Assembly (NCBI GenBank): GCA_008632985.1
Contig: QPGO01000136.1
Span: 62,001-126,000, forward strand
DNA from: Psammoneis japonica
Lineage: Eukaryota
Reading direction: 5' to 3'
DNA length: 64,000 nt
Below, piece by piece: positions 21,252 through 64,000 of the stretch (the first letter of the stretch is position 1; each line of letters begins with the position of its first letter). The notes under the pieces are model-generated. The model searched no databases. It was given only the letters and a program-made list of their open reading frames with translations, and was not told where the DNA came from. The position numbers and the translations under genes are program-made.

Positions 21252-22133
21252 ATGGATCCCTTCTCACCAACATGTATAGGATTGGGTGTGGTGTGTGCCA
21301 CCACCATGGTGTTGCGTGGTGTCAAGCGCAAATCCCTTTCCAACAGCGGCGCGATTGCCGCCTGGATGGTGGGCTTTCTCATTGTGTCTTGTGGCTTGCG
21401 AGGATTTGTCTTGGTGGCTTTTTATTTGGTCGGAACCAAGGCTACCAAATACCACAAGCTTGAAAAACAAAAAATAGATGCGTCGGCCTTGGAAGGATCG
21501 ATACGAGACGCTCATCAAGTCTTGGCGAGTAGTATTTTGGCTGTCGCGTGCAGTCTGTTGCACGCGTGGTTGTGTGGTGAAGAAAAGCCAATCGATTTTG
21601 ATAAACACCCGGTAGCTTCGTCTTTGAGCTGTGCTGTACTGTCGCATCACGCCACTTGCTTGGCGGATACTCTGGCATCAGAAATGGGTATATTGTCAAA
21701 GCAGCAACCCGTATTGGTGACGAAGCCTTGGAAACACGTGCCGCCGGGAACCAACGGGGGTGTTACAGTCAGTGGTACTCTGTGGAGTGCGTTTGGCGGT
21801 GCACTCATGGCAATCTGTACCATATTTCTGGATTTTATATCTGGTTTGCATCCTTTGCAACCAACGCCCGTGATCCTGTTTGGTACGCTTTGTGGCCTGT
21901 TGGGCTCGCTGTTGGATTCCGTTATCGGTGCAACCTTGCAAGCGTCGTATTATGATCCTGATACGAAATTGGCGTACCAAGCCGAGGACATCAACCACAA
22001 GCTTCCGCTCTCTGCCAAGCACATTTCTGGAGTCAACGTTTTAACAAACGCACAAGTCAATCTCGTCAGTGTTGGCCTTACCATTGTCCTCAGCGGTTGG
22101 GTGCTTGGTCCATTTTTGTTTTCCTTCTTTTAG
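21252..22133 (+). CDS. TMEM19: TMEM19 / DUF92 integral membrane protein
   Basis: Multi-TM protein with R...QVLA, ADTLASEMG, VPPGTNGGVT..GT, GSLLDS.IGATLQ and LTN.QVN. Confidence 0.92.
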   Translation: MDPFSPTCIGLGVVCATTMVLRGVKRKSLSNSGAIAAWMVGFLIVSCGLRGFVLVAFYLVGTKATKYHKLEKQKIDASALEGSIRDAHQVLASSILAVACSLLHAWLCGEEKPIDFDKHPVASSLSCAVLSHHATCLADTLASEMGILSKQQPVLVTKPWKHVPPGTNGGVTVSGTLWSAFGGALMAICTIFLDFISGLHPLQPTPVILFGTLCGLLGSLLDSVIGATLQASYYDPDTKLAYQAEDINHKLPLSAKHISGVNVLTNAQVNLVSVGLTIVLSGWVLGPFLFSFF

Positions 22134-22662: not shown

Positions 22663-22841
22663 NNNNNNNNNNNNNNNNNNNNNNNNNNNNNNNNNNNNNN
22701 NNNNNNNNNNNNNNNNNNNNNNNNNNNNNNNNNNNNNNNNNNNNNNNNNNNNNNNNNNNNNNNNNNNNNNNNNNNNNNNNNNNNNNNNNNNNNNNNNNNN
22801 NNNNNNNNNNNNNNNNNNNNNNNNNNNNNNNNNNNNNNNNN
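22663..22841. other. Assembly gap (N run)
   Basis: Run of n characters. Confidence 0.99.
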
Positions 22842-24300
22842 NTTTTTCTTTCACACCCTAACTCAACATTTTGGAAGCATTGCAAATCACATCAGGAGCA
22901 GGGCATTTAGCAAGCAACAACTGTGTGCTCCTTGGAGCCAACTTGCCACACCTCTCAAAACAAGACTTTGCTTCCTCACCAGCATGTTTCAGCAGAAAAA
23001 ATGGGCTGGCTCTTTTCTGTGGCTTGCACGGCTCTGCTCCCAAAAACAGCTGCGCTGCTCTTTCTGGCTCTGTGCAGCCTCCAACAGCCTCCTTGTTAAA
23101 AAGGTTTTAACCCCTCTTTAACTCCTCATGAAAAAATGACAACCACTCACCCACAACTGCTGACCCCACCTTTTTTCTCCTCTCCACAAGGGCCCCTTTG
23201 TTTGAGACTCCGTTGTTCTGCCCCCTGCCCTGGAACCTCAAAGACCCTGACAGAGTTGATGCTCACCCTGCACTTGGCACAATCTGAGAAAAAGGCACCC
23301 AGTTGAAGTGGACAGCTGAGGTCACACTTTCCCACCTTGGCCACCACTTGACCAAAGCTTCTGGACAGACAGCAGGAGCATGTGGCCAGCAGCTCTTCCT
23401 CTGCAGCCTCCTGCTGCTCTTTCCTGGTTGTTGTCAGTGGCCCAACCAAGTGATGCAAACTTGGCAAATGCCAGCCATGCACTGCTGCATTTGCACAACC
23501 AACAGGCGGCCAGCTGCAGCTTCGAACCCCCAGAAATGAAAGCCACGCAACTTGCTCAAAACTGCCCCCCCAAGTCAGACCCTGGAAAATGCCATGACAA
23601 AAGCCCATTTGTTGGGTGTGACAGTCTCATCTGCAAGCCCCAGAAGCAAAGAAAAAAACAACATTTTGAAACATTGGCCACTGCGCTGTGCTGAAAACCT
23701 TGCTTGCCCCCCTGACTTTTTTGCCCCACCACCAGCAGCAGCAGTGCATGCCACAAAAAAGCAAGCATTTTGACACAGTCCTGTCAAGAGAAAAAAGGCC
23801 ATGTGTGACACACAGCTGGCAACTCCAGTTGAGCCGGCATCTCCGAGCACCCCCAAGTTCACAAACACAAAAGACAGACGTCACCTGCGTGAGAAAAGAT
23901 TTGCAGCCCATTGGATTTTCTTTAAATCCAACTTCCAAAACTGAAAAAATCTGCCACAACCCTTTGTCACATTGTCCTCAAAATGGTTCTGAATGTGCCT
24001 TTGCAAGCTGGGCCTTGCCTGGCCAGGCTCGAGGTCGCCACACTTTTCTTGCAGTCTCACCCAGCAGGCTGTCACTGCATGCTGCATGCCTTGTCATGTC
24101 ACCCTGACACATGCCCAATTCAAACTTTCCTTGGCCTTTCAGTTGACACTTTGAGAAATGACACTCTTTTCAGCACCGCTGCTCTTTTTCGATTCTGCCA
24201 AACCAGCGAAAAGAAAAGGTTTTAATCTGATGTTGCTGCGGTCACCTGTGACAAAAACAAATGCCAGCAATCATTCTGAATCTGAAAGCCTTGCATCAAA
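22842..24300. other. TpA/CpG-depleted hypermutated block 2
   Basis: Same dinucleotide signature. Surviving TAs are mostly TTAA/TTAG/CTAA. Origin not recognised. Confidence 0.8.
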
Positions 24301-34764: not shown

Positions 34765-36556
34765 TTAATCACTTCTTTCCATGTCCAAAAGGTCCATTGG
34801 TTGGTATGGCAGAGAAACATTCTCAGGCTTGACCAATATGTTCTTGTTTCCATCCTGCATCTTCACGGCATATCGTCCCTTCCCGCTGTTGTAATTCAGA
34901 ATAGTACCAACCTTGCCGTTCCAGTGAGTAGCGGAGGCCAAACCACGGACCAGAACTTCATCATCTGAGTCAAACACAACACACAGTTTGCAGTCCTCAT
35001 CATGTCCAAGCTCGCGGTGCTCGCGCTGGCATTGCAAACTACAATAAGATAAAGCCCTACATGCGTTGCACTTCATACCATTAGTGCCATCACAAGCATC
35101 ACGTGCGCCCATCATGGCACATTCTTCCTTTACCTCATCCAGCAAATCAAGATGATCTTGCCACTCTTTCTTTGTTCTGTCGCCACTACTGACAGCCTGT
35201 CGAGCCCAATAAGCGGCAAGAGGAATTGGGCTGTACGAAGGCATCGTGATGTAATCGTAGAGTTCATATCCACGGATTATTAATGCCTTTGACAACTGAC
35301 ACTGTGCGCGTTTGAATCCGTGCTTTGCTGCCTTGTCGAACCAGCAAATGGCGCCATGCGCAGGACATGTCGACTTGAGATTGCCTTGCACAATGTGTTC
35401 GCCGAGAATGCACTGGGCTTCGGTGTCACCTTGCGCCGCGGCGAGCGTGTAGTGCCGCAACGCTTTCTTTAAATCAACTGGTCCATAATTTCCAGAGGAG
35501 AACATGTTCCCGGCCATGAGTTGCCCAACACTGTCACCCCCTTCGGCAGCGAAGGACATGAACTCGCGCGCTTTCTCCGGACAAGGTGCCACGCCGTCAA
35601 ATGCGCCCACACACAGGGCTGCAAGATCCACAAAGGCACTGGGATCACCCTTGTCGGCTGCCCTGTGAAACCATTCCAGTGCTTTCTGGCTGTCTTGATC
35701 AACCTCTGTAGTTCCATTGAGGTGTTCGCGTGCAACGTGGACCATCGCCCAAGCCTTTCCATTTTCTGCAAAATCAAGCCAAGCTCAGTGAGGTTCAGGG
35801 TGGATGCTCATGAACCTCACACCCACTGGCTTTCTGCAAGCTGGGCAATTGCGAAAAGCAGAGTCTAACGAATGAGCAACCTTTGCTTTGCACTCAAGAC
35901 AGAGCCGTGCTCCACAGCAAACAGTCGTCCCTGACAAATGAGGTTTCTGTCGGGTCCACGAGCAGTTGCACCCAAAGGCATGAAATCGGAACAAAATGGA
36001 CATGACATGTTTTCATTGTCGAAATTGCGGTTGGATGCATAAAATTCATTTCGCCACTTCTGCGCCACCGTTTGAACTCGCAACTCCTCCGTTCCAACTC
36101 ATCCCTGAAGCCTCCGAGCAGTTTGCTTGCTCGCGCATCTCCGACAACATTGTCATTGCACTTCGCTCCGGATCTTACAATCTCCAGATGGCTCATTTCG
36201 GATTTAAGTCTTTCAATGGACTCTTTTGTTCTTGGCCAAGAAGGCCCCTCGATTCGTTTTCGCAGTCGTTCCATCGACTCATCAAGAGTCAAAAGCTCAT
36301 CCGCGCCAGACATGGAACGAGCCCCACTGCTGGCCCCACTTGAGTTCTGCCTCTGTCCACCACCATGTCTTCTCGTGTGTCCCTGGTCTCTCACACATGC
36401 TTTGCATCGTCCACGAAACCCCTTTTTCCACTGACTCGAGCTGCAATTTTCGCGATCGAGATTTGCGCTGCATTGAGAGCAACGTCTGGTGTTGCCAACG
36501 TTCCTGTCATTCTGACAAACAGCAGGCGGTTGCGCCTTGGCTTTTAGTGTCAGCAC
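34765..36556 (-). CDS. Sel1-repeat / MYND zinc-finger protein with N-terminal Cys-rich fingers (frameshifted)
   Basis: KALEWFHRAADKG, KALRHYTLAAAQG and WFDKAAKHG repeats. MYND motif C..C....YCS..CQ..H...GH...C. Upstream ORFs carry CxxC motifs. Confidence 0.72.
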
Positions 36557-36911
36557 TTCTACTGTACAAAAAGTCGGTTTTCAAATCACATGCAATTGTC
36601 GCACTTGTTGGACGTCATGGTCATGGTGCGTGCGGGGATGCGGAGCAAGACGCACGGTGGACTCGTTCGACTCAATCGCGAAGCACGTGACTTGTTCGCG
36701 CCATCAAATCTTTGAAAGTACACAGAAAGCGATAGTAAATCCTGTCTGTAGGGAGGACATCGTAGATGCTACACTGGTACTGCCTATGTACTATTTCACG
36801 TACGTAGCTTTTAGCAGAGCTCATCCTCCGCACTGCACTTGGCCACAGAAGACGACGTCACAAAACGCCTGATCTCGTGTCAAATTTTCGTTTCTGTTGC
36901 TATTGCGAACC

Positions 36912-38468: not shown

Positions 38469-39233
38469 TCATTGCTGTTTATTTCTTGTCCTAATCGCCG
38501 TTGACACGCTTACTCTACCATTGCTAAAGCTTGGCAAATCAAATGTCCACTCTAAACCAACATCTGCCCCAACATTGGATAGAAATTCCTTGGTAGAAGT
38601 TGGAAGCCGATAACTAATCAAGAGATAGATGCCGCCGTGCGACAATACCCGAGCAGCCCCTTCGAAAATACGGGTGAGCGGTGTATTCCAGCCTTCTCCG
38701 CATAATATTGCATCAATCAACCCCTTATCCAAAATGGCTTGATATTCACTAGGAACATCAACATGTTGCTCTGCTTCTCGAAGCAACACCTCCTGGAGTT
38801 CGGTGGCATCGCCACACACGTACTTTAGTCTCTCACAATGATCCCCATACCGTTCCAGCAGGTGATCAAGACAAGTCTGAGACGTATCTAGACACGTCAC
38901 GACGGAAGCGTTTGTATTGTCGTGTAACAGTTTTGGTACCTGTGAATTGCCGCATCCAATCACGAGGCAAGACGATTGTTTCGGCACATAGTGATCCACA
39001 ACGTCAGCCAGCGGTATGGACGCATGCCATTCAGTCTGATCATTTCCCTCAATCTGATAATACTTGTCCCACCCCAATGGAGACGAAAAGTCAAAAGCAA
39101 AACGATGTGTCAGTTCTTTTGATTTTGGTGAAACTGCTCGAAAAGCTGCACTTCGGGAAGTCAAGCACAGTGTGGCTACTAGCAGCCCATGTCCAACGAG
39201 GAATTTGATGTTCTCTTTGGCAATAGTTTTCAT
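38469..39233 (-). CDS. Class I SAM-dependent methyltransferase (EEF1AKMT4/METTL13-N-like), possibly plastid-targeted
   Basis: W..YY, LVIGCGNS, DAT and ILDKGLIDAILCG motifs. N-terminal hydrophobic stretch ending SAA-F. Confidence 0.8.
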   Translation of the reverse strand: MKTIAKENIKFLVGHGLLVATLCLTSRSAAFRAVSPKSKELTHRFAFDFSSPLGWDKYYQIEGNDQTEWHASIPLADVVDHYVPKQSSCLVIGCGNSQVPKLLHDNTNASVVTCLDTSQTCLDHLLERYGDHCERLKYVCGDATELQEVLLREAEQHVDVPSEYQAILDKGLIDAILCGEGWNTPLTRIFEGAARVLSHGGIYLLISYRLPTSTKEFLSNVGADVGLEWTFDLPSFSNGRVSVSTAIRTRNKQQ

Positions 39234-39519
39234 GATCTTCTTCGCTTCTTTTCTGTTTTGGTCGTTTGTCAGCAGCAGAGTGTTTCTGATGCCATAAGTT
39301 GTGGAGTCACTGTTCAATGCGAGGAATGTAATGGCGGTGAGATCCATGCGATCGGCATTCGGCATCAACAACATTGGGATCATCCGCCCCCCGCCCCCCG
39401 CATTGCGGTAGGGCCCTAAATTCCAAAATCCAAAATGCGCCACCCGCCATGCATGAAGGCAGGGAGGGAAGGACAGACTGCCGGGGTGTGTGAACCGGCC
39501 GGCCGGATAGATCGATGCA

Positions 39520-42500
39520 TCGATGTGGTCGACTTCTTTTTCCAAAAAGTCTCTGATGAGTGATCCTTTTTTTGTGAAGGAGAGCACCAAATCGTTGGCT
39601 CTCGAAATCCTTTTTGGAAGAAAGCAGACAAAGGCTGGTCTTTGAAAGAAAAAGAACACAGCAGTGTGCAACCATGCTGAGTTGCCAGAGTCGCGCCTGA
39701 CACTGACTAAAAGGCGGTGATCGCATCAAGGCAGGCTGGTGAGAAGATGTTTTGACCAAAAAATCCTGTCATGATGAGGCTTGGTGCACAGATTCCTCTC
39801 AAGTGCCAGATGTTTTGAAAACAACGGCAGTTTTGTTTTGGGCATTGGACATGGGCTGTTTTGGAGCTGCTTTCGCTCAATCGCTCAGCTGCCAAAGGGA
39901 ATCACCAGCACTGATGTGTGGACTGTGTGGCATCATTGTCACAACTGGGGTGCCTTTGTGATGGGAAATTGGGGATTTGACTGGATTGAAGATGAGCCAA
40001 TTTTTTTCAATCTTTGCCAGAGCATCAGAGCGCGCATTGTGGTGGTTTCCACTTTCCTTTGTAAATTTTTTAATGTGCGTTGTCAAAATTGTTAACAACC
40101 AGAATTTAAAAAATGCCAGCAAAGGTGCTCAACAAAATGCAGCTGTTTTGTGCATTTCATCTGATGTCTCATCAACGTTTCTTGCACAAGCTTCAATCAA
40201 ATGCGTGCAATGTTCTGTTCAATGGGGGTCGAAATCCACATTTTGTGGTGCATGGTTTGGTTTCCTTTTGACTGCAATCAATTTGAACTTGGTTTTAACT
40301 TTGTCCTCCTCACTCACGTGCATGTGTCTTTGCATGTGTGCAGTCTGTCACTGCACATGCAGTGCTCAACGCACGCACGTGACCTTCATTTTTCTTCATG
40401 TTTCCCAGATTTGCGCAGCCCGTTGGTCTGCGGCATTTTCAGCATGTTTTTTACATGCGCATTTTTCCACACACTTCACAACAGCACACCCTCTCCCCAA
40501 AATTTGAAAAACAAGAGCATGTGCTGTTGTGATTCACATGGATCCTGCATGTGGTTGCAAATCTGCAAATCCACAACAACCGGCCATGGCGGTGAAAGAC
40601 TTTGCCCCACTGGCCAATGACAGCAGCTCAACGCATGTGAAGCCTGCTGTCCTTCTGGTTGGTTAAGATGGATTTTGACTGGGGCACAGCTTGAGTTTCA
40701 TGATTGCGAGTGTGCTGTCACAAATCTGCCGCATCCAGAATGCTGAGCTGCTGGCGTGTTGTTTTGTGCACGCACGTCACAAATTCACTCCCATGTTGCA
40801 CTCTTGCAACATGTTCTGCTCTTTTTGGTGATGAGTGAGGTGGAACAGAGCAGCAGCAGTTCAAACAATGGAGCAGCAGCTCCTGCTACAAACTCGCCCA
40901 CTCCAGAATCAGCGGCGCCTGATTCACCGGTGAGTCTGTGTTGCTGTTCCTGTTGGCAGTGTCAGCTCATCTGCACTGTGCTCTCACAATGCATTCTGCA
41001 CTTTTTTTGGCAATGAACAAAGTGGCTGCCAGCAGTGGCACTTCAAGAAAGCAAGCTGCAACTGCTGCTGCAAACTCCAGGGTGTTGTCTCCTTCAGCAT
41101 CATTCAGTTTAAATGCAGACAACAAAATGGAATGTTCATGGTGCAGTGCAAATGATTTTAATTTACAAGTTTTGCAGGGATGGAGGGTGGGCACTCTCAT
41201 GGGGAAAACATGTCCCTGTTTCACAGCAAAAACAGGGGGTCTGATCCCACAGCATAAAAATGTTTGTCTGTCACAGTTGACATGTCATTGCCAGCTGCAC
41301 AACTGTCAAGGTTTGAAACAACAGAATTTTGTGCTGCAACAGATTAAAAAATTGCTGTGAGAAAGGTGGTCTGGATCAGCGCTGCAATGCACACTCTGAC
41401 AAGAGGGCTCAACTTCTTGCTGGCATTTCTTCATGTCAGTTGTTGTTGCCAGCATGTCAGCACTCTCAATTTGTGGAGATGCAGGGTTTCTGTCAGCTTT
41501 GTCTCTGAGGTTGGCCCACTGGGTGTGGGGCTCCAAAGATCTTTGAGAGGAGCTTGTCCAAGTTTTTCTTTTGGAAAGAACACAGGAGGGCACTCTTTCC
41601 AGAGTTGGCATCAGAAGCCAAGCTCACTCATCTCAAAATGGCACTTTTTTGCTTGTTTGTGCACATGATCATGGCCTGCCTTCTTAGAGAAGCAAACAGA
41701 AATCTGTTGAACTCTGAGCTCCACAGAGGCAACAAAGTGGTGCTCTCAATTGTCAGCGCAGCAACGTCATCTTTCAAGAGAGAATGAACATGTTTGAAGA
41801 TGCCATGGCCATTTGCAGACATGCTTTACACTGGCCACCAAGTGTGTAGATTCTGCTTAAAAAGTCCTCACAAAAAGCCCAGACATGTGGAGAGAGACAG
41901 CTTCTGCAAAAAAAGAGGAGCAGCAGGCAGCTTTTTGTTTGGCGCTGAGTTTCTGCATGCTGTTGTTGAGCACTCCACTCAACTGTGCCACTCTCCATGT
42001 GGCTTTGCACAGAAATGCCAGAAAAACATCTTGCAGCAGATCTCTCATCCAAAGAAAAGCTCATTTTGCTGCAAAACAAGGCCTCCAAATCAAAGCACCT
42101 TTTGATTGCTGTGATGTCTGCTGCAGCATGTCACAGATTGTTGTCCTGCTGAGTTTCTGCACATGTGCCACAACTGAACATGCTGCTCAAACATGACACC
42201 TTGTGGCTTCCCAAAGCCAGCAACTCAACTGGTCCCATGAGAACCCGCATTTTGCACCAGTGAAAGCAACCCCCGGGTTGACGTGCGAACGTGGAGCTGC
42301 GACCTGTCCTTGTTTTTTTTACACGAAGGCCGAAGGGTCACGCACACCAAGCAAAAACTGCAACTTTCACCCCCCCCCCCAATCGAACTGTCAGAATGTG
42401 CAGTGCAGCAGGGAGTCGGTTGAAAGTGCATCGGCGGAAGTCGCTCGCACGCTCGCATGCAATGCCAGATCGCATGTAAAACAATCAGGTGGGATGGACA

Positions 42501-45470
42501 TTTCTGGTCGTGTGATGTCCGTGTTGTCGATCCGTTGTGAACTCACTTGTTGCCCTTCGTGTTTTGTGTCTACACAGGCACGAACACACAAGATTAAAAA
42601 AACTCAACGGACGTTGAAAATCTGTTGAAACTTGGAAGTTTCAACAAAAAACTGTTGAAACTTGGAAGTTTCAACAAAAAAATGTTGAAACTTTTTTCGA
42701 GTTGTTGAAACTTCAAAGTTTCAACAGATGTTTTGTTGAAAGTTTGAGTTTCAACAAAAACACTTTCAACAAAAATTCACAAAAACTGTTGAAACTTTCA
42801 GACTCTACATTGCATGACGTCATCCACCAGTGGCGGCTACACGCGAAATGGGAAAAGTGCAGCGGCGAGCCAAATTCAAGCTGACACTGCGCGATGACGC
42901 AAACCGCCTCGAAGCAGTGGCGGTGTTTCTCAACGCCATGGCGAAACATCCTGAGAGACAAGCAAAGTTCTTGATGTGAGCATTGAAAGTCACTTGACGA
43001 GACCAAGCCCGGCTCTCAGCTTCTGCTGTGGGTCCCGACATGCCGAGCTTTAGCGGTCCTTGTGGCGCCAACTGCGACAGCGTCTTTGGCATTTTCCACG
43101 GAGTTTCAGAGCGGCATCAGATTCGCAGAAATGATTTTTTGCACCAGCGCAGAAATCCACCTGTGTTTCTGGCACATGAAATTCATGCCGACATCAACCT
43201 TTTTGCGATCTTTCGACAATGGCGGCGTTCTCGGTTCGCAGCTGTTGCGCCACTGATGCCGCGTCAATTGTCGCAAAACCTGTGGCATGTCACTCATCAC
43301 CCTCTTCTCAGTTCATTTTTTCCCTCTGACATTGCATCTTCTTCGGCCACAATCTCGAATTTCGACAGCATCAACACAAGGTAAAAATCCAAAGCGGGTG
43401 CCAGTTGTTTGTTGGTTTTTGACCCCGCGCTTTTATTTTGAACGCCCACCTGAAACAGCGTTTTGCCTTCTCTTTCACTTGATCCCCCAGGGTGTCATTC
43501 TTTTGGGCTGCAGTCGTCTGGGGAGCCATTCGCTGAGGCCATGAGCCATGAAGCTTCTGTTGAAATCTTTCTGTTGGGTGGAGATCACTGAACACGGTGA
43601 CTGCCCTGTTGGGTGGACATTCCGACTCATTTCAAACATTGCCAAAGGAATGAAACAAGTCACCCAGTTTCTGTGTTTCCTGTTGGAGACTCAAATGAGC
43701 AAGCTGCACTCACAAACACTGCGGTCTGCTTCGAAGGTAAGATCAAAACATCCGACTCTGCTTGTTTGTCTCGTGGAATGAGATGTCTTCTTTAGACAGC
43801 TCGAATTTAGAGCCAACAGAAAAATGTAAAAAACACTTTAGAGTGCCCCATTGACATCACAACAGTTTCATTTTAGAGACAGGAAGGAGTGCCAACCATC
43901 AATGGCAGCTCAGCAGCATCACAAAGCCATCGGAACGGGCTCGGTTTCAGAGCTGAGATCTGCGTTGATCCACTTCGTAAAGAGCAAAAAACAGCACCAC
44001 AACTCATGGACTCATGGATGGTTGATTTACATCAGAAGCCTTTTTCACAACAGTTGCAGGAAAGGCACAAGACAATGCGATCATCGTCAATCCAGGGTGA
44101 GTTCACCAATTTTTGTGATCGAGTGTTCTCTTTGTGATGTCACGCACCAGAAAATGTCGTGAAGTCCACACAGAAAACGGAACACCAATTTGAAGCTGCT
44201 GCTTTGTGGCCAAAGTGAGCTCACCATTTGAAGCACATCTAAGAAACGGTCACTCCAACAAGCAAAGTGAAGGGCTGTGGAAGGTGCTCCAAATGCCACA
44301 GCAGTTTTGATGTTGTGGCAACATCTTGAAACTTGCAGCTCTGTGTCATTAAGTGGGATTCCGCAAAATCTGCGTGTCACGCACAAAAGCAAGGAATTTT
44401 AAAAATGTTCGAGGTTGATCGAGCTCCGAAATGATTGGTTTGGATTTTAGTCGCACAAGTCGAAGCCAATGCCACTCGCGCGTAGAGCTGAAACACCGTG
44501 TTTCTCGCGGTGTTTCAGAGCGGCATTGGCTTCGTAGAAATGATTTTTTGTGCCAGCGCAGAAATGTGCGCATGTTTCTTGTGCATGAAATTCATGCCGA
44601 CATCAACCTTTTTGCGATCTTTTGACAATGGAGGAGTTCTCGGTTCGCAGCTGTTGCGCCACTGATGCCACGTCAATTGTCGCAAAACCTGTGGCACATC
44701 ACTCGTCACCCTCTTCTCAGTTCATTTTTTCCTCTGACATTGCATCTTCTTTGGTCGCAATCTTGAATTTCGATGGCATCAACACAAGGTAAAAATCCAA
44801 AGCAGGTGTGAGTTGTTTGTTGGTTTTTAACCCCGCACTTTTGTTTTAAATGCCCACCTGAACAGCATTTTGCCTTCTCTTTCACTTGATCCCCCAGGGT
44901 GTCATTGTTTTGAGCTGCAGTCGTCCGGGGAGCCATTCGCTGATCGCTGAGGCCATGAGCCATGAAGCTTCTGTTGAAATCTTTCTGTTGGGTGGAGATC
45001 ACTGAACACGGTGTGACTGCCCTGTTGGGTGGACACTCCGACTCATTTCAAACATTGCCAAAGGAATGAAACAAGTCGCCCAGTTTCCGCATTTTGAACA
45101 AGCAAGCTGCACTCGCCAACACTGCGGTCTACTTCGAAGGTGAGATCAAAACATCCGACTCCACTTGTTTGTCTCGTGGAATGAGATGTCTTCTTTAGAC
45201 AGCTCGAATTTAGAGCCAACAGAAAAATGCAAAAAACACATTGGAGCGCCCCGTTGACATCACAATGGTTTTGTTTTAGAGATGGGAAGGAGCGCCAACC
45301 ATCAATGGCAGCTCAGCAGCATTGAAGCCATCGGAGCGCACTCGGTTTCAGAGCTGAGATCTGCGTGAATCCATCATTTCGTAAAAGAGCACAAAACAGC
45401 ACCGCAACTCATGGACTCATGGGTGATTGATTTGCATCAGAAGCCTTTTTCACAACAGTCACTGGAAAGG
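39520..45470. other. TpA-depleted (CpG partly depleted) hypermutated block 3
   Basis: TA is rare throughout. CG is rare at 40.5-42.2 kb but retained at 42.2-45.5 kb. The signature fades over 45.5-45.9 kb. Confidence 0.85.
42612..42800 (+). repeat. Array of GTTGAAAC/GTTTCAAC palindromic units (left)
   Basis: 22-bp hairpin units separated by short A/T runs. Confidence 0.9.
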
Positions 45471-45905
45471 CAAAAGACGATATGATCATCGTCAATCCAG
45501 GGTGAGTTCACCGATTTTTGTGATCGAGTGTTCTCTTTGTGACGTCACGCACTAGAAAATGTCGTAAAGTCCACACAGAAAACGGAGCACCAATTTGAAG
45601 CTGCCACTTTGTGGCCAAAATAAGCTTGCCATTTGGAGCACATCTAAGAAACGGTCACTCCAACGAGTAAAGTGAAGGGCTGTGGAAGGTGCTCCAAATG
45701 CCACAGCAGTTTTGATGTTGTGGTAACATCTTGAAACTTGCAGCTCTGTGTCATTAAGTAGGATTCCGTAAAATCTACGTGTCATGCATGAAAGTAAGGA
45801 ATTTAAAAAATATTCGAGGTCGATCGAGCTCCGAAATAATTAATTTTGATTTTAGTCGTACAAGTCGAAGCTAATGCCACTCGCGCGTAGAACTGAAACA
45901 CCGTG
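43097..45905 (+). repeat. Two tandem ~1.4-kb units (43097-44500, 44506-45905), each with its own CACGG.GTTTCAG...CTGAAACACCGTG inverted ends
   Basis: The units align along their whole length. Terminal inverted motifs ctgaaacaccg/cggtgtttcag and cgaagccaatgcc/ggcattggcttcg. Confidence 0.85.
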
Positions 45906-46019
45906 TTCGTTCTACCTCCCGTCAATTCGTCTGCTCTACCTCCTGTCAATTCGTCTGAATTGACGGTGACGTCATGAAGTTTCAGACATTATGGTGATGA
46001 CATCGTGGTGACGTCAGAC

Positions 46020-46186
46020 AGTTTCAACAACGACTGTTGAAACTCAAAGTTTCAACAACTTTTTGTTGAAACTTGGAACTTTCAACAAAAAATCTGTTGA
46101 AACTTTTTCGGAGTTGTTGAAACTTCCAAGTTTCAACAGTTTTTTTGTTGAAACTTCCAAGTTTCAACAGTTTTTTGTTGAAACTA
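46020..46186 (-). repeat. Array of GTTGAAAC/GTTTCAAC palindromic units (right, inverted relative to left)
   Basis: gttgaaacttccaagtttcaacagttttttgttgaaac is the reverse complement of the left-array units. Confidence 0.9.
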
Positions 46187-46617: not shown

Positions 46618-49411
46618 CTACCGTTTTCCACCCTTGCCCTTGCCTTTGGACTTGGATTTATCCTTGGACTTGGATCCATCCTTAGACTTGGATCCACCCT
46701 TGCCGCCCTTGGACTTGCTCGGGGACCCATTTGAAGGGCATTTATTGAGTCTACAACGGCTGTTCACACCCTGCCATTCGCCTTTACAAAGCCTTTCGGT
46801 GGTAAGTATGCAAGTTCTGCCACCATCACCTCTGCTCGAGCTTCCACTGCCGCTGCCATACCAGCTGATGAAGCCTAAATCCCTGTCCCTCATCCGGCTC
46901 TTGCTTCCCCCCTTGGACTTACTGCTACTTCCGCCCTTACTCTTGCTTCCGCCCTTGCTGCTACTTCCGCCCTTGGACCTCCTGAAGCCCTTGCTGAAAC
47001 CCTTACTCCTGCTTGCTCTATCCGGGACAGCAATGCAGCATGCACCAAGTATTCCTGGCGTCGGTGGCCGGGTTGGACGTGGACAAGTTAGGTCACGGCA
47101 TAGATTACCCCGACCCTGGTATCTGCCTCCCAACAACCTGCAGCTCGAAGCAAATTTAAGGTCCCTGCATTTGCCGCTCTTGAAACAGCAGCCACCGTAA
47201 AGTGACGGCTTTGGAGTAGGTGGTGGAGTAGGATCAATATCCAACGGAGTTGGTGCTGGAGTAGGCTTCGGACAAGTTAAGTCACGGCATAGATTGCCCA
47301 ATCCCTGGTACATGCCTCCCACATCCATGCACCTCTTTTCCTTTCTAAAGTTCTGGCATCTACCATTTTCAAAGCAGCAGGCACCGCGATCAGGAGTTGG
47401 TGGTGGAGTAGGATCAATATCCAACGGAGTTGGTGATGGAGTAGGCATCGGACAAGTTAGGTCACGGCATCGATTACCCAATCCCTGGTACTTTCCACCC
47501 AAAGCGATGCACCTCAGTTCCTTTCTAAAGTTCTTGCATCTGCCGTTTGAAAAGCAACAGGCACCGCGATCAGGACCTGGTGGTGGAGGAGTTGGCTCTG
47601 GAGTTTTGGGTGCAGCAGTTGGTTCTGGAGTTTTGGGTGTAGCGGTTGGTGCTGGAGTTGCGACCGGACAAGTAATGAATTTGCATCTGTTACCGGCGCC
47701 CTGGAACTTTCCTCCCAACGATGCGCACTTAGCGGGGTTCACGAGATTCTTGCATGCACCATCTTCAAAACAACAGCCACCGCCTTGGCGGGGAGGATTA
47801 GTGGGCTTCGGGGTAATCGGTGTCGCCGTTGGCTCCGGGGTTGGGGCAGGGCAAATTGCGTCATCGTTGCAGTCAGTCTTGTCACCCTGATAAATTCCAC
47901 CGTCGTTGTCGCAAGTGTCTTCGTCGACGTCTTGACAGGTCCCGTCTTCGAAGCAACATGCTCCTTCCTCAATATCCAAGGCGGTTGGCGACGGAGTCTT
48001 GGGAGCAGGAGTGGGAGATGGCGTGGGAGCAGGAGTGGGTGGACGAGTTGGACACGTAATATCGCTGTCGTCGCATTCAGTACCAGCTCCCTGATAGTCT
48101 CCGTCAGCTCTTTTGCACTGATTCAGGTTCCTCGTTGAAGTACACGAGCCATCAGGAAGACAACATGCCCCCGGTAAGCGCCGACAGCGAGCGTTGTCGC
48201 AGGTGCTTCCGTTGCCGTTATAGATACCTCTGAAAAAGTCGCAAGTGTCCTCATCGACATTCTCACCGCAACTTCCGTCCGGGAAACAGCAACTGCCGTC
48301 CGTCACGTCCAATGGTGGGGTCGGAGAAGGAGTCTTAGGCGTTGCGGTCGGAGAAGGAGTCTCCGGTGCAGAAGTCGGAGAGGGAGTCTCGGGTGTTGAA
48401 GTTGGAGAAGGAGTCTCGGGTGCAGAAGTTGGAGAAGGAGTGTCAGGCACAGGACCGGGGGTAGGAGACGGAGTGTCCTGCGCTGTACAAGAGATATCAG
48501 GGTCATCACACTCGGTACCGGGGCCCTGGAAATCACCATTGGCTTCTCTAGTACACCTCCTCCTGTTTTTGAATTGCTGACACGATCCGTCAGGGAGGCA
48601 GCAGGCTCCAGGCTTGACTGCGCAAACAACGCTAGCGTCTGTACATTCCGAACCAGCTCCCTGGTAGGTTCCTCTATCACCATCACACGTAGCTTCATCA
48701 ACGATGCCACAAGATCCGTCCGGGAAGCAGCATGCACCCGCCTCAAAATCCAATGGGGTAGGAGATGGTGTCGCTGCAGCACAGGAAACATCGTTACACC
48801 TTACTCCGCTCCCCTGCCATTCACCTCCGAATCTCCTGTTACAAACTCCTTCATTCCTGGTAACTCTGCACTCTTCTGTTTCGCGTATACAGCATGCACC
48901 ACTTTGCCCAACCGGGGACACGGTGGGGCTCGGGGAAGGCGAAGGCTCTTCAGGACAGGTTGCGTCTTCGTTACACTCAGTGTTCCCGCCCTGGAATTTT
49001 CCGTTTGCAGCAAGACAGTCGGCTTTGTTGGCAATGCCACAAGTGTTCCCGAGATCAGGAAAGCAACACGCTCCGATTTTGTCGAGCTGTACGACGTTTG
49101 AGAGTCCAAATGAACAAGGATAATTAGAATAAATCGACGTATGAAAGCACTTGTCCCTTTAAGTTTCATTCTTACCCCAGATTTCAAAGGGACGTTTTGT
49201 AGCTTCCTGGAATTTGTCTCTGGTACTTCCTCAGTAAGCCCTAGCTTTGCCGCGAGATCTGCAGTAAAACGAAAACACAAAAGCGAAAATGTGAGAAAAG
49301 AACACAAACGCCAATGACATTGATGCCAAGAAAATACCCGGTCCTCGTACCCGCGGCTTCGCAACAAGCTAGAGAGAGAAGGAGTAAAACTCCCTTGCTA
49401 ACGATCTTCAT
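46618..49411 (-). CDS. Secreted Cys-rich GACC-repeat protein with Pro/Thr stalks and a Lys/Ser/Gly-rich tail (candidate cell-wall/adhesive protein)
   Basis: Signal peptide MKIVSKGVLLLLSLACCEA at 49411, with 5' introns (e.g. ~49259-49337). More than ten GACC..DG.C...C...GG.YQG.G..C repeats. TP.PT repeats. C-terminal SKGG/KSK tract. Confidence 0.8.
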
Positions 49412-57707: not shown

Positions 57708-58830
57708 TCAATACTTTATGGAGAAAACACTATCGTATCTTCCCTGAGGATCACCGAGGCGGGCTGTGACGGCCAAGGTATATCTGGTATTAGATAAAGC
57801 CACGGCCCATCCAAATGCATCGCCAGGTGCTGTGCCATCGACAGGCGAGCCCATGTTCTCCCACTCATCTTGTTCGGGCTCATTGGGCTCGAAGACTCGG
57901 GCTTGACCAGTTTGCTGAGCGAAGTTCCTTGCACCGACGGCGACCCTGTTACCATCACTAATCAGGGACACGCGGTGACCAAAGCCGGAGCCTTCATCTC
58001 CACGAATTACTGGGCCAAGTTGGTTCCACTGGTCGCAATTCCGTCGGTAAGTGATGACGGTTTGGCCTTGGTTTGCTCCCGCTGCAATTGTGCTGCCATC
58101 GCGGGATACTTTAACATCTCCTCCAAGTCGACTTCCTTCATCAGTGCCTTGTATTGTCTGCACGGCGGTCACTTCTGCCGGACCAAGCGGTGTGGGTGTG
58201 GGAGATGGAGTTGGTATGTCGGTTTCTTTCACCGTACCTGTCGGTGTGGGAGATAGCGTCAGCGAGACTGTGGGAGATGGAGTTGGTATGTCGGTTTCTT
58301 TCACCGTACCATTCAGTGTCGGAGATGACGTTGGCGGAACTGTGGTTGATGGTGTTGGCGGGGCAGTTACTTCAGTGTGAGAGATGGCGTTTTTCCGATT
58401 ACTTTAAGCGTGAGACAGATAGCGATGACTGATCTGTAGTTTGGGTGCCAATTAATACGCCTACCACTGCCCCAACGGCTGCAATCAGTAAAATGATTGC
58501 AGAAGCGATGAACCACCTGCGCCTCCACAATGGAGTCTCGGCCAACTGGTCGGTGGATTTTCCCTTATCTGGGGGACTGCTCTCCCTGACCAGACCCGCA
58601 ATCAGTGCAATGATTCCAGAAGTGACGAACCACCTGCGCCTCCACAATGGAGTCTTGGCCCTCTGGTCAGTGTTTTTTCTCTCATCTGGGAGTCTGCTCT
58701 CCCTGACCAAACCCTCTTCTGCTGTGTCATCTACAGCCTGTGCTGTGACGCTTGATGAGGTACGTCTTCGATTTCTTGCCTAATTTTGCAACGAAGCTCT
58801 TCGCGAATTTCATTTGCCGAATCCTCATTG
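57708..58830 (-). pseudogene. Type II membrane protein with Pro/Thr stalk and FG-GAP-like propeller repeats; frameshifted and 3'-truncated
   Basis: Duplicated 117-bp TM segment (TPLWRRRWF). 72-bp TP.PT repeats. FG..VSL..DG..VAVGA blades. Homology to the 63480-64000 copy breaks at ~57740 while that copy continues. Confidence 0.6.
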
Positions 58831-61639
58831 TGACCGTATGTGCGACTACAGTCTGAGGTCAATCAGAATTAGTTGAAAGGTTGCCTCGACAGTTATCATG
58901 AAGATTAGGGCCTGCGATGGCATGAGCGCCTACTTGCGCATTAGACGTTGCTTTTGCTTGCTGCGTTCCTCTGTCATCCGATGTGTTGTGCTGGCCACTG
59001 TCTTGAGCGCCAACGACGGAACTGTGGTGGAGTGAGCGATGACATAGTTAAAGAACTTTCATTTTGAGGACCCCGTGAGCGTGGCGTTGATCTACTAGCC
59101 TTCTTCTTCTCTGCTACTTTCAAAGCTTCTGTGTCGGTCTTGTCGTTCGTTGCTACATTGACAGCGTGCAGAGCATTTGCCGTGGCACATTTCCCTCGGA
59201 GATACGTCATCATATTTACCCACACGATCCCATGCCTCAGCGGTGTCTGAGTTTGTGCCTTTGTTCATGGCAACAACTTCAAAGCAAAGGGTGTTACAAT
59301 TCTGAGCAGAAGGCACATGTGGAAGTTTAATGCAGACACCAACGTACATGTGCGACCGAAAGTTACATTCGCATTTTTAAGTTGTTGGAAGCACCGGTGG
59401 AGGCGAATGCCTCCTGCATGATGTCCCCTGATTTCCACCTGCCCGTGTGCATGGCAACCCAACAAACATCACATGCAGGGCTTCAGTGCTGGACAAGCTT
59501 CTGATGTGTGTTTGAAACAAGAGAGCTTTGTGTGAGACACTTCTTTCCAGGCTGTTGTTCTTTTCACCTGAGCAGAGCTCATCTTGCTCCTTGTTCTTGT
59601 CAGCCAGTGCACTCATGGAAGAGGTGTTTTGTGCCTGTTTCTTGAGAGAGTGCATTGGAAGAACAGCAACTGTGATTGCTGACACCCATGCTCACAAAAG
59701 AGCTGCTGCCCCATCTTGCAGTTGTTGGGTTGGCCAACTCTGCTGGGCACAGAGCAAATTGCCACACACAGGGAGAAAAAGTGTGCAAAAAAGCTTTTCT
59801 TTTATTTCTGGGAGGTCATCCTTTGGGTGCATTGCTGAAAAAATGAGGTCTCTCATGCAGACAACCTTTTGTCCTCATCAGAGACAATCTGACATCACTG
59901 GCTCTCACAGTGTTTGACCTCACTCTCTTTTCCAAAATGCAGCTGCATCATGGTTGCCTCCCACCAGTCAAACACACAGCACTTTTTTTCTGTTTCTGAG
60001 GATCTGCCCCCTGTTTGCACTCCAACAGCAGCATCAGGGAGGCTCAGGCCACTTGCAACGGCTTTGGCAAACAACTCCTTCAGTGCCTCTTTTTTCTGCC
60101 TCTTGTGCAATGCTCTCAAGAGAGCTTTTTGTGTGCAAGACCAAGATTTTTTCCCTCCTCAAGCCCTTGTGCTTTGCCCCCAGGCAGAGATCTTCTTGCT
60201 TGTCAGCTGGCACACTCATTGAATGTGTTTTGTGCCCATTCATTTGAGTGTGTGTGGATGAGCCTTTGGCGCTGTCTCCGGACTTTCTTGCAGAGTTAGC
60301 TGCTGACACCCATGCACTTCTTGCACAGAGAAAAGAGCTGTCTTCCAGCTGCTTGGTTGGCCAGCTGTTCAAAGCACTTTCTTTTTTCATGAGAAACATT
60401 TTTTGAGATTCTGGAGGCCTTTAATTGCTCTTGTCTTCTGGGGTGCTTTTTTGCTTTTCTTCTTTTTTTGCCAGACTTCTTTGCACTGCCAGCTGTGCCA
60501 CCTGAGAACTGTGTCATGTTTGAGCTCACAGATGATGAGCTCAAGCCAGCAATTTCTGCCACACTGCACATGTCTCAAGTGTTTGACAATTGCAAACTGA
60601 GTGTGTGGGTGAGACTGCCTTGCAAGCTTCAAGAAAGGAGTCTTTGCAGTGCCGCACTGCAAAAAGGAGGAGCCACCCCCCTTTTTTGACTGCAGAGGGT
60701 TTCTCCTTTTCTGCTCACTCAAAAAGCTGCTCTCTTGCCACAGGCTTGATGATCAACAAACACACCAAAAAAAGTTTGAGAATGCAAACAAACACCCGCT
60801 GCCTTTTTGCACATGTGGGCAGTCATCCTCTGCTGGCGGCACTGTGAAGTGTGGTGCTGGTGCCCCATGCCGGCGCACACAGGTTTGCCTGAATGTCCTC
60901 AGACAAGAAAAGACAAGGAAACAAGATGTGAGGAAAAATTTGTTGTGGCAATTTGCTGCACAGCTGCAGCTGTCCTGGTCCTTTGATCCACCAGCAGCTG
61001 ACTTGTCCAGAGCCCATCCACCAAAATGCCTTTTTAAACACTGTGTTCAATGAGCAAGACAGGCACCGTTGGGGACCATGTTCTCAGCATGATTGCTCCA
61101 CCTCATCTTGCTTTGTGCCATCATGTTTTGCTCCTCACCAAGATGTTGCTGTGGCACATGCAAGCAATGGCTTCAACAACTTTGCAGCCCATTTTCCTGT
61201 GGCAAAAATTGCACATCTCTTTCACACATTTTCAAGTCTCCTCCCCAATTGTTTTTCCATTGATGGCAAAGCGTTAAACACCGCTGGGCACAGGGGCACA
61301 TGAAATGCACAAGGGAAAATTGATTGGAAGTGGCATTCCAAGGCTTCTGCACACATGAGAAATGAGTTTGTCACAGTCGGGGGCCACAAATCAATCGCCG
61401 GCACGCTGTTTTCACGCGCAAAACACGGCATTTTATGTGGCACTGTGTGGAATCAGCACCAGTTTCACTGCAGAAAGAAATGCCATGTGTGGCATTGTGG
61501 CACTTGTGTGGATGATCACTGCCAGCTGGTGGAGAGTGGCGAGTGCAAATGAAAGCAGCACAATCCGCGTGCGATGTTGATGACTCTTTTTTCCTCGTCT
61601 TCTCCCTGTCATCATAAAAACAATTGTTTCAACAGCGAA

Positions 61640-63150
61640 TGATGTCAACTCGCCGTCGCCCCAACCCTTTTGACTTCAAGTCAATTGCACTTGAAACTGT
61701 CTCCCTTGTTGGAATGTTTGGACAAGATGAGCTCCTTGGGGACAGAGCTTCTCTTACGGATTTGAGAGCAATTGGTGAAAAGGCCGCCTTTTTGCCCAGA
61801 ACGGTGTTTGTTTGGACCGAAATGCAGACTGTGTTTTCGGAATTGTTGAAAAAAGATGCTGGCAAAAAGCGCGCACTCATTGGCAGCCCCGGAGTTGGAA
61901 AATCCACGGCATTTTTCTTGGCAGCCCTGCACATTGCAGCAGTGAAAAGAAAACAGGTTGTCTGCATTCGCTGGGCTGCCGAAGAGCAACCCCCACAGTT
62001 TTCCTGATCTGCCCAGGACAACATGATGGTGCTGTTTGCATGGGATCACTCTCCTTCACGAGGTTGCGCTTCTCCCTCAAGGACATTGCGTGGGCCGCAC
62101 TGGATTTCGGCTGTGAAACAAACAATGAAAGCCAGCAGCACTTCCTCGATGGGCCCAAGGAAGTGCAAGCAAAAGAACTCGTCAATCTTGACTGCCATTT
62201 GTGCATGTCAGGAGGATGCAGTGCTCTGTCCAATGCTGAATGGATGATCACCCACATTGCCGTCATGAGTGGATCGACTGAGTGTGATCTCATGGCAGCC
62301 TCAGCTAATGTGAAGAATGTCAATTCGAACGAAGCAAAGAAAGTGTGCGCTGAGTGTGGAGGGCGAATGCGTCTGGCACTTGATCATTCAAATGATGAGG
62401 CGGCAATGATTTCTTGGGCTGATGGCATTGTTGCGGATCTGTCAGAGAGTGCATGTGCTTTGGCAATGATGGAGTCAGAGTCTCGAACATCTTTTGACAG
62501 CAAAGACAGATTGCGGACCATGTTCAGGAGAAGCAGTGGGCGACCTCTTCAACTCGTGGATTCACAGCATTTGCTTTCAAAGCTTCGAGACCGCTTGACT
62601 TTTTGTGACTTGCAAAAAGCTTGTGGAGTTGCCGAGGCACTGGATTCTCGTACGATGATGGGAGTCCTTTTTGAGGAAATCATGCACAACTGGTTTCAAC
62701 GAGTCAAGCCGACCCCGGCATCCAGGGTTTTGCATTCCCCTGGGGGGGAGACAGGAAAAGCTGGTGCCGCAGACCTGTCCAAAGAGCTGGCCTGCTGGAG
62801 TCCAAGTGTGCCAAACTTTGCCAATGTTGGTGCTGCGTTTGTGGACAAAGCAACCGTTCTGCATTTTTTTTGTGCCCAGTGTGCCACAAGTGACTCTCAC
62901 GAGTTCAACGCCTTGACGTTTGACACGGATTTCATCCTCGAACTGAAAAAGAGCTTCGTCAAAGGATTCCAAGAGATTGTGGTGTGTTTCACAGTTCCAT
63001 CTGGGGTGATCTTTGACGTTGAGGCACATGACGCTTTTGAGTGTGACAACGACTCAACAACCTGTCGGTTTGAGGTTGTTCATTTGAAATTCAGCAATGA
63101 CAACAAAATTGGTGCATTGGCCAGCGCCTTTCCCTTCTTGTCACAGGAAA
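61640..63150 (+). pseudogene. Hypermutated Crinkler/RHS-type P-loop NTPase + REase-like effector gene
   Basis: Walker A LIGSPGVGKS, FLDG, GG..R.A and G.LFEE.MH. C-terminal CWSPSVPNFANVGAAFV...Q.....H.F resembles CR-REase 'YW.P..PNF..ID'. Frameshift near 62000. No Tyr in the 471-aa ORF. Confidence 0.65.
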
Positions 63151-63419
63151 AATTCTTGGGTTGCAGAGGTGCGCACGCTGCAGGCCGTGATTGTGAATGT
63201 GCCCACAGATCTGATTGCACCAAATGAATGTGATGATGAAGAACAGATGGCAGCTGTCCGACGCACTGACAGAAAGGCGATGGAAGGATGCAGGCTGTGC
63301 TGGACTGGGGACTGAGTGAGACATGGGACTGTCTTCCAATGCCCTCCCTCGAGATGGAGCCAGTTGATTCACAATGATGTGAAAAAACTTGCAAGATCTT
63401 GCAAACCTTGGAAGAAAGT

Positions 63420-64000
63420 GCAATGGAGCACATTCCGTCAAGATTCTGAGCTCCTGCCACAAGAACATTGCCATCGTCAGACAAACTCAAGTGACCATCA
63501 CCAAGGTCACTGGAACTGCCTCGCCTGACAACATTCTGGCCATGCTGAACCCAGCTGCTTCCATCAAGTTCGCACACTCGGACAAATGCCTGAGTCTCAA
63601 CCGCCAGCATCTGATCCAATGGCTCCAACAGCTAAATGCAGACCTGTCAGCAGAAAGTTCTATGCTGGCACCATGCCAACTTTCGAAACTCTCTCTGTCC
63701 AGGTCTTGACCGCGCTGCTTCCAACTGTTGTTGTCAAAAGTCAAAAACTTTGACCCATCCAAAACCGTTGGCACCCCAAACGATTCCGACGGCGACTCTA
63801 CGTCCAGTGGAATCAAATGCAATGGATCGACATCAAGGGCAAACTCGCCCTCCAGGTCCTTACCAAGTTGGGTCCATTGGCTTCTAAAAGGGCAAATCCG
63901 AGCATGTCCGGCGTCCAACCTTCCCTGAGGATCGCCGAGGTGGGCAGTCATGGCCATGGCATGTCCGGTGCTAGACAAAGCCACGGCCCACCCAAATTCA
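63420..64000 (-). pseudogene. Hypermutated paralog of the FG-GAP-like gene at 57708-58830
   Basis: 63920-63997 aligns to 57739-57817 (ttccctgaggatc.ccgagg.gggc...aaagccacggccca.ccaaat). W.Q.G.D..G and LS.DG..L..GA blades. Confidence 0.8.

Follow-up and report, generated by a model that had tools for sequence, protein, structure and literature searches.

In the genome of the diatom Psammoneis japonica, an interval at positions 42240–45470 of a 64-kb stretch (contig QPGO01000136.1 of assembly GCA_008632985.1, 62001 to 126000, forward strand) has lost most of its TpA dinucleotides and still carries many CpG. The locus raises a simple question. Is TpA removed by the same decay that removes CpG from silenced DNA, or by something else? 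We refer to the whole 64-kb stretch as the window, count positions from its first letter, and write TA and CG for the two dinucleotides. An initial annotation had proposed two separable processes, with the TpA process being faster, or reaching further, than deamination of 5-methylcytosine (5mC). The computational follow-up described here indicates that two transition processes, each tied to its own sequence context and both yielding CA or TG, probably rewrite repeated or decaying DNA of this diatom in place.

TA and CG define three states of the window

In window-wide profiles, normal DNA has an observed/expected ratio (o/e) of about 0.58 for TA and about 0.95 for CG. When the two ratios are compared in 500-bp bins, the states separate. 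Of 127 bins, 86 are normal, 18 are TA-low with CG kept and 23 are low in both, while none is CG-low with TA kept. The 41 TA-low bins are grouped in six kb-scale blocks, with edges that are sharp to tens to hundreds of bp. Bins low in both lie at about 10.4–18.8, 23.0–24.0, 41.0–42.2 and 59.5–61.0 kb. The TA-low, CG-kept bins lie at 42.25–45.5 kb, at 61.25–63.75 kb, at the block margins and at 35.5–36.5 kb.

The block cores are poor in both dinucleotides, as the initial annotation had it. Over a total of 10740 bp they hold 3.1 TA and 5.9 CG per kb, compared with 39.7 and 53.2 in normal DNA. The o/e of TpA goes down to 0.04 (range 0.04–0.10), and that of CpA and TpG goes up to 1.8–1.9. The sum of TA, CG, CA and TG barely moves: per kb it comes to 243.5 for normal DNA, 240.4 for cores and 236.3 for zones that are low in TA only. 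CA and TG alone amount to 150.6 per kb in normal DNA, 231.5 in cores and 189.0 in the TA-only zones. The gain of CA and TG thus offsets the loss of TA and CG, which indicates mutation in place.

As a control for chance, we scanned 38 metagenomic loci with eIF2A relatives (272 kb), and none of their 1031 500-bp windows has a TA o/e below 0.25. These loci are short, gene-centred contigs, and the result is no evidence that other diatoms are without the process.

A tandem repeat loses TA faster than CG

The interval 42240–45470 (3231 bp) contains 31 TA and 145 CG. Among 247 normal windows of the same size in this stretch, the lowest TA count is 93 (median 125) and the lowest CG count 142 (median 173). 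The TA count of the interval is far below the normal range, and its CG count is at the low edge of that range. Combined with a second zone at 61251–63750, the CG o/e is 0.70, versus 0.95 in normal DNA. The split between TA and CG that had been noted here is real, but CG is mildly reduced rather than intact.

Most of the interval is taken up by a tandem pair of a 1.4-kb unit on the plus strand, and the two copies are 91% identical. Copy A (43092–44500) is TA-low throughout. Copy B (44501–45910) is TA-low to about 45470 and TA-normal beyond, the last lost site being at about 45433 and the first kept TA at 45481. Beyond 45470, copy A can be compared directly with TA-normal sequence, and it has converted 15 of 20 TA and 5 of 22 CG. 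Only 8 of 210 other A/T positions and 5 of 140 other C/G positions have changed.

Where both copies are TA-low, 16 sites are CA in one copy and TG in the other, nine TA are kept in one copy and four in both. In the same DNA, 26 CG are kept in both copies and 19 in one. From these patterns the unit is inferred to have had 38 TA in about 960 bp, or 39.8 per kb, as against 39.7 in normal DNA. The unit therefore had a normal TA density when it was duplicated, and both copies were stripped independently afterwards.

Retention per copy is 0.136 for TA and 0.73 for CG, so the two dinucleotides do not decay in proportion. The TpA process is indeed the faster one, as had been claimed. Per site, the ratio of the two rates is at least about 6.4, a lower bound because resistant contexts inflate TA retention. 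Transversions separate the tandem copies at 20 of 1392 aligned sites (1.4%). In the time that transversions took to reach about 0.7% per copy, TA loss thus came to 2.0 per site. By arithmetic on this pair, TA is lost at a few hundred times the transversion rate and CG at about 40 times.

The interval is part of a repeated foldback-like element

The TA-low, CG-kept zone (42241–45470) lies within a foldback-like repeat element. Two terminal arrays of 24-nt palindromic units (TGTTGAAACTT..AAGTTTCAACA) bound this element, the left one at 42617–42798 and the right one at 46035–46185. The arrays flank 3.6 kb, with TGACGTCA palindromes just inside each of them. In other copies of the element in the read set, 43060 is joined to 45946, without the inner 2.9 kb.

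Read-depth sums were placed on 39–47 kb as the total over all contigs of one read set that are at least 85% identical. The baseline is 35–65. Sums are 990–5450 at 39.8–41.4 kb, 15–88 at 41.4–42.2 kb, 470–810 over the element ends (42.5–46.2 kb) and about 80–525 across the interval. Since their sums rise far above the baseline, the interval, the element ends and the stretch at 39.8–41.4 kb are repeated DNA. To the left lies a TA-low block at 39730–42240. It consists of a high-copy repeat with intermediate CG at 39.8–41.4 kb and an about single-copy part at 41001–42240 that is low in both dinucleotides. At 42240, CG density jumps sharply.

Among the repeat copies at 39–47 kb there are 256 places with transitions and 99 with transversions. 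Adjacent TG/CA double changes occur as well (for example at 42463/4 and 42505/6), which indicates that the same ancestral site was resolved independently in separate copies. We had considered the high depth at 39.8–41.4 kb as amplification of sequence that was already free of TA. This reading was dropped because the depth pools copies of at least 85% identity, and because the main identity classes fit the divergence of about 9% that is expected if TA and CG sites are resolved independently.

A segmental duplication and a young insertion order the losses in time

A comparison of greater age comes from a segmental duplication, seen in a k-mer dot plot in the purine/pyrimidine alphabet. The hypermutated copy (10850–14215, plus strand) lies within the first block low in both dinucleotides (10351–18783). 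Its unmutated twin (19105–21387, plus strand) is collinear with it. The twin covers a frame at 19068–20228 on the minus strand and the start of a DUF92 gene at 21204–22133 on the plus strand, and it has TA and CG at the usual densities. About 61 TA are present in the twin, and 55 of them are CA or TG in the block copy (25 T>C, 30 A>G). Of about 78 CG in the twin, 62 are TG or CA in the block copy. Other transitions affect 14% of A/T and 11% of C/G positions, and transversions 6–8%. Depending on the alignment, transversions number 73 of 1187 (6.1%) or 118 of 1565 (7.5%).

Both processes can be tested on these counts. TpA is the target of the first, with 15 of 20 TA versus 8 of 210 other A/T converted in the tandem pair and 55 of about 61 TA converted in the duplication. 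CpG is the target of the second, with 62 of about 78 CG converted in the duplication as against 11% of other C/G. CG loss per transversion is, again by arithmetic, of the same order in the older pair and its core as in the TA-only tandem pair.

The first block is interrupted by a 390-bp insertion (11423–11812) that resembles a miniature inverted-repeat transposable element (MITE). It has 25-nt terminal inverted repeats that are 92% complementary and a second, inner inverted pair. The insertion is rich in both TA and CG, at normal levels, and it is missing from the matching part of the twin at 19.39–19.70 kb. Judged from its letters, the MITE-like insertion is a young, unmutated time marker within an old block. 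The three ages can be placed in order. The MITE-like insertion has lost neither dinucleotide, the tandem pair with 1.4% transversions has lost TA only, and the segmental duplicate with 6–7.5% has lost both. Whether young copies are TA-low with CG kept and old ones low in both was a check proposed in the initial annotation, and the tandem pair and the segmental duplicate fit this pattern.

Block edges and an isolated TA-low stretch

Margins in which only TA is low, 165–300 bp wide, are found at three of the five outer edges examined. Just past the proteasome-subunit frame, on the left side of the first block, dense TA ends at 10184 and dense CG at 10349, leaving a TA-only margin at 10186–10350. 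At the right edge, CG is back at 18784 and TA only at about 19050, so the margin is 18784–19050. At the third block, TA becomes sparser from about 39230 on, and CG from about 39530–39730. This margin (39230–39729) extends into the 5′ end of a methyltransferase-domain frame (38469–39725, minus strand). The 500 bp at 39251–39750 hold 6 TA and 25 CG, and the minimum TA in 745 normal 500-bp windows is 7. The mutator may touch the start of this neighbouring, apparently intact gene. At 59.38–59.44 kb and at 24.2 kb, the TA and CG edges coincide.

TA-only margins had been reported at 10.2–10.35 and 39.5–39.75 kb. They are real at three edges of five, but they are not general, given the coincident edges at 59.4 and 24.2 kb. 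The further suggestion that the TpA process reaches further has the same margins in its favour; a separate range is not needed. A faster process with the same spatial profile saturates further out, so the margins need no separate explanation.

The inner borders are of a different kind. The CG step at 42240 is the end of a repeat unit; a variant with 30 extra letters occurs at 42246, and the depth changes there. At the TA step in copy B, the depth sum goes from 162 to 492. This step, at about 45470, may be a recombination with a younger copy or an assembly join to one.

One TA-low, CG-normal stretch, unlisted in the initial annotation, adjoins no core. It lies at 35487–36545 on the minus strand, in the 5′ part of a RING/Sel1/MYND gene. 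Its TA density is down to 5 per kb, a loss of about 87%, with CG at 54 per kb. As a hint of TA loss without any CG loss it is the best in the window, although it is read from present CG density and not from the ancestral one. The frame at 35894–36580 (minus strand) is free of tyrosine. At positions where the Sel1 consensus presumably has Tyr, His or Cys is seen in the first Sel1 repeats. When searched without a profile against 1.84 billion representatives, this frame gave 10 weak matches, the best with E=3e-8, and only to a short cysteine motif. The RING motif seems split over two reading frames, so a frameshift or a sequencing indel is possible. A GT..AG intron of about 55 nt lies near 35815–35760.

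The TpA process is strand-symmetric and spares TTAA

In the segmental duplicate, the 25 T>C and 30 A>G changes show that both strands are hit about equally. Clustering of outcomes was not found in runs tests on 50 TA sites (P=0.60) or on 62 CG sites (P=0.95). Such symmetry without clustering points to duplex DNA, one site at a time. The random interleaving of CA and TG excludes fixation of one-strand RNA editing, and it argues against processive deamination of single-stranded DNA.

The process has a flank rule. In 10.7 kb of core, 33 TA survive, and 14 of these are in TTAA. Survival is partial in TTAG/CTAA and in GTAA/TTAC. No core survivors were found for ATAT, ATAC, ATAG, GTAC, GTAT or CTAT. 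Surviving CG follow another rule and sit between G/C neighbours. The cores contain broken frames and stops of the CGA type. What has been mutated comprises repeats, the foldback-like element, the duplicated host segment and gene relics.

A gene relic without tyrosine

The zone at 61251–63750, which the initial annotation had placed at 61.3–63.2 kb, is TA-low with CG partly kept and behaves like the one at 42.2–45.5 kb. It contains the relic of a P-loop NTPase gene (61779–63227, plus strand) with 482 codons, no stop and no tyrosine. The Walker A motif has been deleted, so the frame is a relic, and the N-terminus has diverged. Seven homologues (proteins P0121–P0127) are 44–59% identical to it. 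Thirteen tyrosine columns are conserved in these homologues. In the relic they read seven Cys, three His, two Phe and one Ile, and none is Tyr. Cys and His are the products of TAY changing to TGY or CAY, so the replacement of tyrosine fits TA conversion.

An open frame in TA-free DNA is no sign of function, since a TpA mutator removes TAA and TAG and makes no in-frame stop. The family to which the relic belongs consists of P-loop NTPases of about 500 amino acids with a GSPGVGKS motif, found as seven sequences that are all labelled 'hypothetical protein'. Pfam searches with four of the seven gave P-loop/STAND-type matches below threshold only. Pattern searches for relatives gave 336 matches in metagenome contigs and 134 in viral contigs, of which none was confirmed in either set.

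Other features of the window

The window has a G+C content of 47%. Its long frames are eukaryotic, with FAST/RAP, proteasome subunit, eIF2A, DUF92 and Sel1/MYND among them. The best named relatives of the eIF2A frame are from diatoms, pennate ones among them (Cylindrotheca, Fragilaria, Nitzschia and Seminavis; 49–51% identity), and other relatives reach 58–62%. Two further blocks are low in both dinucleotides, at 59380–61250 and, in a short version, at 22843–24220. The short block lies beside an assembly gap of 180 N (22663–22842). The adjoining gap suggests that TA- and CG-free blocks are hard to assemble. Inside the first such block, at 14501–15500, the plus strand is A-rich (208 A versus 82 T in one 500 bp, then 183 versus 84 in the next). 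In-frame tandem repeats are present in long open frames of normal composition, with units of 66 bp (8090–8287), 180 bp (47213–47572), 72 bp (58197–58340) and 117 bp (58481–58714).

Two processes and their alternatives

For this window, and as read from its sequence, the mutational origin of the pattern, its direction, context, strand symmetry, rate ratio and order of events are established. The change of TA to CA or TG is a change of A:T to G:C and cannot be a by-product of cytosine deamination. On this point the initial annotation was right, and its two-process reading is supported as well by the unequal retention of TA and CG and by relatives that are not natively TA-poor.

We take the two processes to work as follows. 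The first changes A:T to G:C at 5′-TpA-3′, on either strand equally and one site at a time. It largely spares TTAA and partly spares TTAG/CTAA and GTAA/TTAC. At a rate hundreds of times that of transversions, it removes some 85–95% of TA soon after a sequence is targeted. Its chemistry may be enzymatic: in the simplest version, which we favour, a polynucleotide adenosine deaminase would turn adenine into hypoxanthine within duplex DNA. Targeting would go through a repeat or silent-chromatin mark. The second process turns CG into TG or CA, about six times more slowly per site. Most simply, this would be the deamination of 5-methylcytosine in methylated repeats, which presumes CpG methylation of the blocks. 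With the first process being faster, recent targets and block margins are TA-low yet CG-rich, old targets have lost both dinucleotides, and very recent insertions neither.

Several observations weigh against this account or narrow it. CA/TG discordance between the tandem copies can stem from ancestral CG, with 1.7 such sites expected and corrected for. Selection probably acts on the normal member of the segmental duplication, so that part of the differences arose in the twin itself. Only one member of that duplication is mutated, which means that being duplicated does not suffice as a trigger. Of 28 block frames, none reached a Pfam match with E<0.01 (four matches are at chance level), and no transposon or viral protein was recognisable among them; the targets are characterised solely as repeated or duplicated. 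The inner borders at 42240 and about 45470 coincide with repeat-unit ends or depth changes. They thus go back to the history of the sequences, or perhaps to a recombination between copies or a join made in assembly; how far a process reaches is not what they show. The read set that contains the stretch may come from the very sample used for the assembly, in which case it is not an independent confirmation of the sequence. Finally, the idea that the ratio of TA to CG could act as a clock of silencing fits the three ages that can be ordered, but three ages in one window are too few to establish it.

How many enzymes are at work is a separate matter. A single deaminase, for example one like ADAT2 or TadA, could hit TpA fast and CpG slowly, as one process with two substrates. 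None of the 127 bins has lost CG and kept TA. The two changes are both transitions that affect the strands equally and do not cluster, at self-complementary pyrimidine–purine steps, and relative to transversions the CG losses of the TA-only zone and the core have the same order of magnitude. A preprint on the alga Bigelowiella natans (Mettrop et al., bioRxiv 10.64898/2026.01.13.699255) cites ADAT2 enzymes with editing activity on A as well as C in DNA. However, the de novo mutations reported there are on TpA only, and that text does not mention CpG. The stretch at 35487–36545 has lost about 87% of its TA and keeps a normal 54 CG per kb, and the two dinucleotides survive in different flanks, TA in TTAA and CG between G/C neighbours. 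Methylation of diatom transposons would already account for CpG decay (PMC9998398). We regard a single enzyme as unlikely. The chemistry of the TpA mutator could also be one of thymine. Oxidation of the TET/JBP type to 5-hydroxymethyluracil or 5-formyluracil, which would mispair with G, would turn T into C. T>C on one strand is indistinguishable from A>G on the other, and the outcomes number 25 and 30. In dinoflagellates, 5-hydroxymethyluracil favours TpA. Thymine chemistry finds no direct support in our analysis, and the only study of the phenomenon favours adenine deamination, itself without proof; we hold thymine chemistry to be quite improbable.

The remaining explanations deny that genomic DNA was mutated in place at all. 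Blocks of foreign DNA, from a virus or transposon that avoids both dinucleotides, would be natively poor in TA and CG. UpA and CpG are both suppressed in many viruses, and the block frames match no known family. Yet the unmutated twin, the tandem ancestor with 39.8 TA per kb and the 13 tyrosines conserved in homologues and changed to Cys or His in the relic all show a TA-normal ancestor. Relatives that are natively TA-poor, which the initial annotation had named as the finding that would count against it, are thus contradicted in the four stretches where this can be judged. One block copy moreover duplicates ordinary host genes, and the relic family has no relatives in viral contigs, which leaves a foreign origin very improbable. 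Misreading of modified TpA and CpG bases in silent chromatin is about as hard to credit. If a symmetric modified site were called as CA or TG at random, the result would mimic an unclustered 50:50 pattern, and the 482-codon frame does stay open. An open frame is expected anyway, by reasoning, because a TpA mutator cannot make in-frame stops. Against an artefact, the cores have broken frames and CGA-type stops, and the relic has a Walker A deletion and a diverged N-terminus. Contigs assembled from exact 31-letter words of run X1 moreover reproduce four pieces free of TA letter for letter, with word depths of 33–38. Editing of adenosine to inosine in double-stranded transposon RNA by an ADAR-like enzyme, fixed by retrotransposition, is the least credible of all. 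In its favour, ADAR prefers U before the edited A, as stated in the Discussion of the B. natans preprint, and the targets are repeats. A retrocopy would carry A>G on one strand; here CA and TG are equal in number and randomly interleaved. The mutated DNA also includes a collinear genomic duplicate with intergenic sequence, as well as block margins in unique flanking DNA, and the tandem copies were mutated independently in place.

Relation to known mutators

Among known systems, that of B. natans comes closest. In a mutation-accumulation study of this alga, 231 of 302 single-nucleotide mutations fell in integrated giant-virus and virophage regions (Mettrop et al., bioRxiv 10.64898/2026.01.13.699255). 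Every GC-biased mutation in these regions hit TpA, with a rate about 1000 times that of the background, and the de novo rate was about 1e-7 to 1e-6 per site per generation. Adenine deamination was proposed there without proof, and the preprint mentions neither CpG, nor flanking context, nor diatoms. The likeness is close. In both systems TpA becomes TpG or CpA on either strand, in kb-scale regions and at orders of magnitude above background. Both leave a footprint of TpA depletion with a gain of CpA and TpG, and the TpA-depleted genes of B. natans are enriched in transposon-type domains.

The differences are also plain. The host here is a stramenopile, a diatom, and B. natans is a chlorarachniophyte rhizarian. 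TA o/e is 0.04–0.10 here versus 0.45 in the viral region of B. natans. In this window the process has hit repeats, a segment of duplicated host DNA and relics of genes; in B. natans it hits integrated giant-virus and virophage DNA. Mutations in B. natans were observed as they arose; in this window they are inferred from footprints. What is new relative to B. natans is the host lineage, the near-complete erasure, host duplicates and relics as targets, the co-occurrence with CpG decay, and the flank rule and rate ratio. The slower CpG decay, the sparing of TTAA and the TA:CG rate ratio can be read here and go beyond the preprint. So do strand symmetry without clustering, a TpA rate about six times that of CpG decay, and signs of action where CpG is untouched.

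So far, this single 2026 preprint on one unrelated alga is the source for a mutator that changes A:T to G:C specifically at TpA in resident DNA. For diatoms, the literature searched yielded no account of lost TpA or of hypermutation at TpA. A mutation-accumulation study of Phaeodactylum describes the usual GC-to-AT bias and, in its accessible portions, mentions no TpA hotspot (PMC6604790). Diatoms are only distantly related to that alga and dominate ecologically, and a saturated footprint in one of them suggests that marine protists widely undergo this process. Possibly, though we put it forward tentatively, diatoms share a TpA-editing defence of the B. natans type. Such a defence would be old and widespread in the stramenopile–alveolate–rhizarian lineages, would act on duplex TpA outside TTAA-type contexts in DNA marked as repeated or silent, and would be independent of cytosine methylation. 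If so, it would erase nearly every target while only a quarter of CpGs decay, and the pair of TA and CG survival values would date, locus by locus, the entry into the silent state. There are practical consequences too. TA-free DNA lacks TAA, TAG and tyrosine codons, so gene finders call long false frames in it and homology searches miss its relics. Repeat ages based on CpG-corrected divergence would be wrong in such genomes.

The fast process is in effect the mirror image of fungal repeat-induced point mutation (RIP). Like the process seen here, RIP is a context-specific, defence-like hypermutation of repeats by transitions that leaves a dinucleotide footprint. It acts in a premeiotic stage. 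RIP changes C to T mainly at CpA and so creates TpA (PMC2621366); here, TpA is destroyed, down to an o/e of 0.04, and CpA and TpG are created. RIP mutates both duplicates, whereas the twin at 19.1–21.4 kb is untouched, although both copies of the tandem pair were hit. The animal enzymes ADAR and APOBEC offer another likeness, in that deaminase-type editing, putative here, serves as defence. They act on RNA or single-stranded DNA and in a strand-coordinated manner, unlike the random changes on both strands of resident genomic DNA that we describe. A test for APOBEC-type action, which would leave strand-coordinated clusters of C>T in TpC or CpC context, was negative, as the runs tests were not significant and non-CpG C/G transitions reached only 11%. 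The slow process has the more familiar counterpart. In Phaeodactylum, CpG methylation of transposons depends on DNMT5a (PMC9998398). As in decay of 5mC, CG turns into TG or CA in the repeat blocks here and genes keep a CG o/e near 1; such decay would account for the slower half of the window's pattern only. The faster half has its nearest counterpart in the TpA mutator of B. natans.

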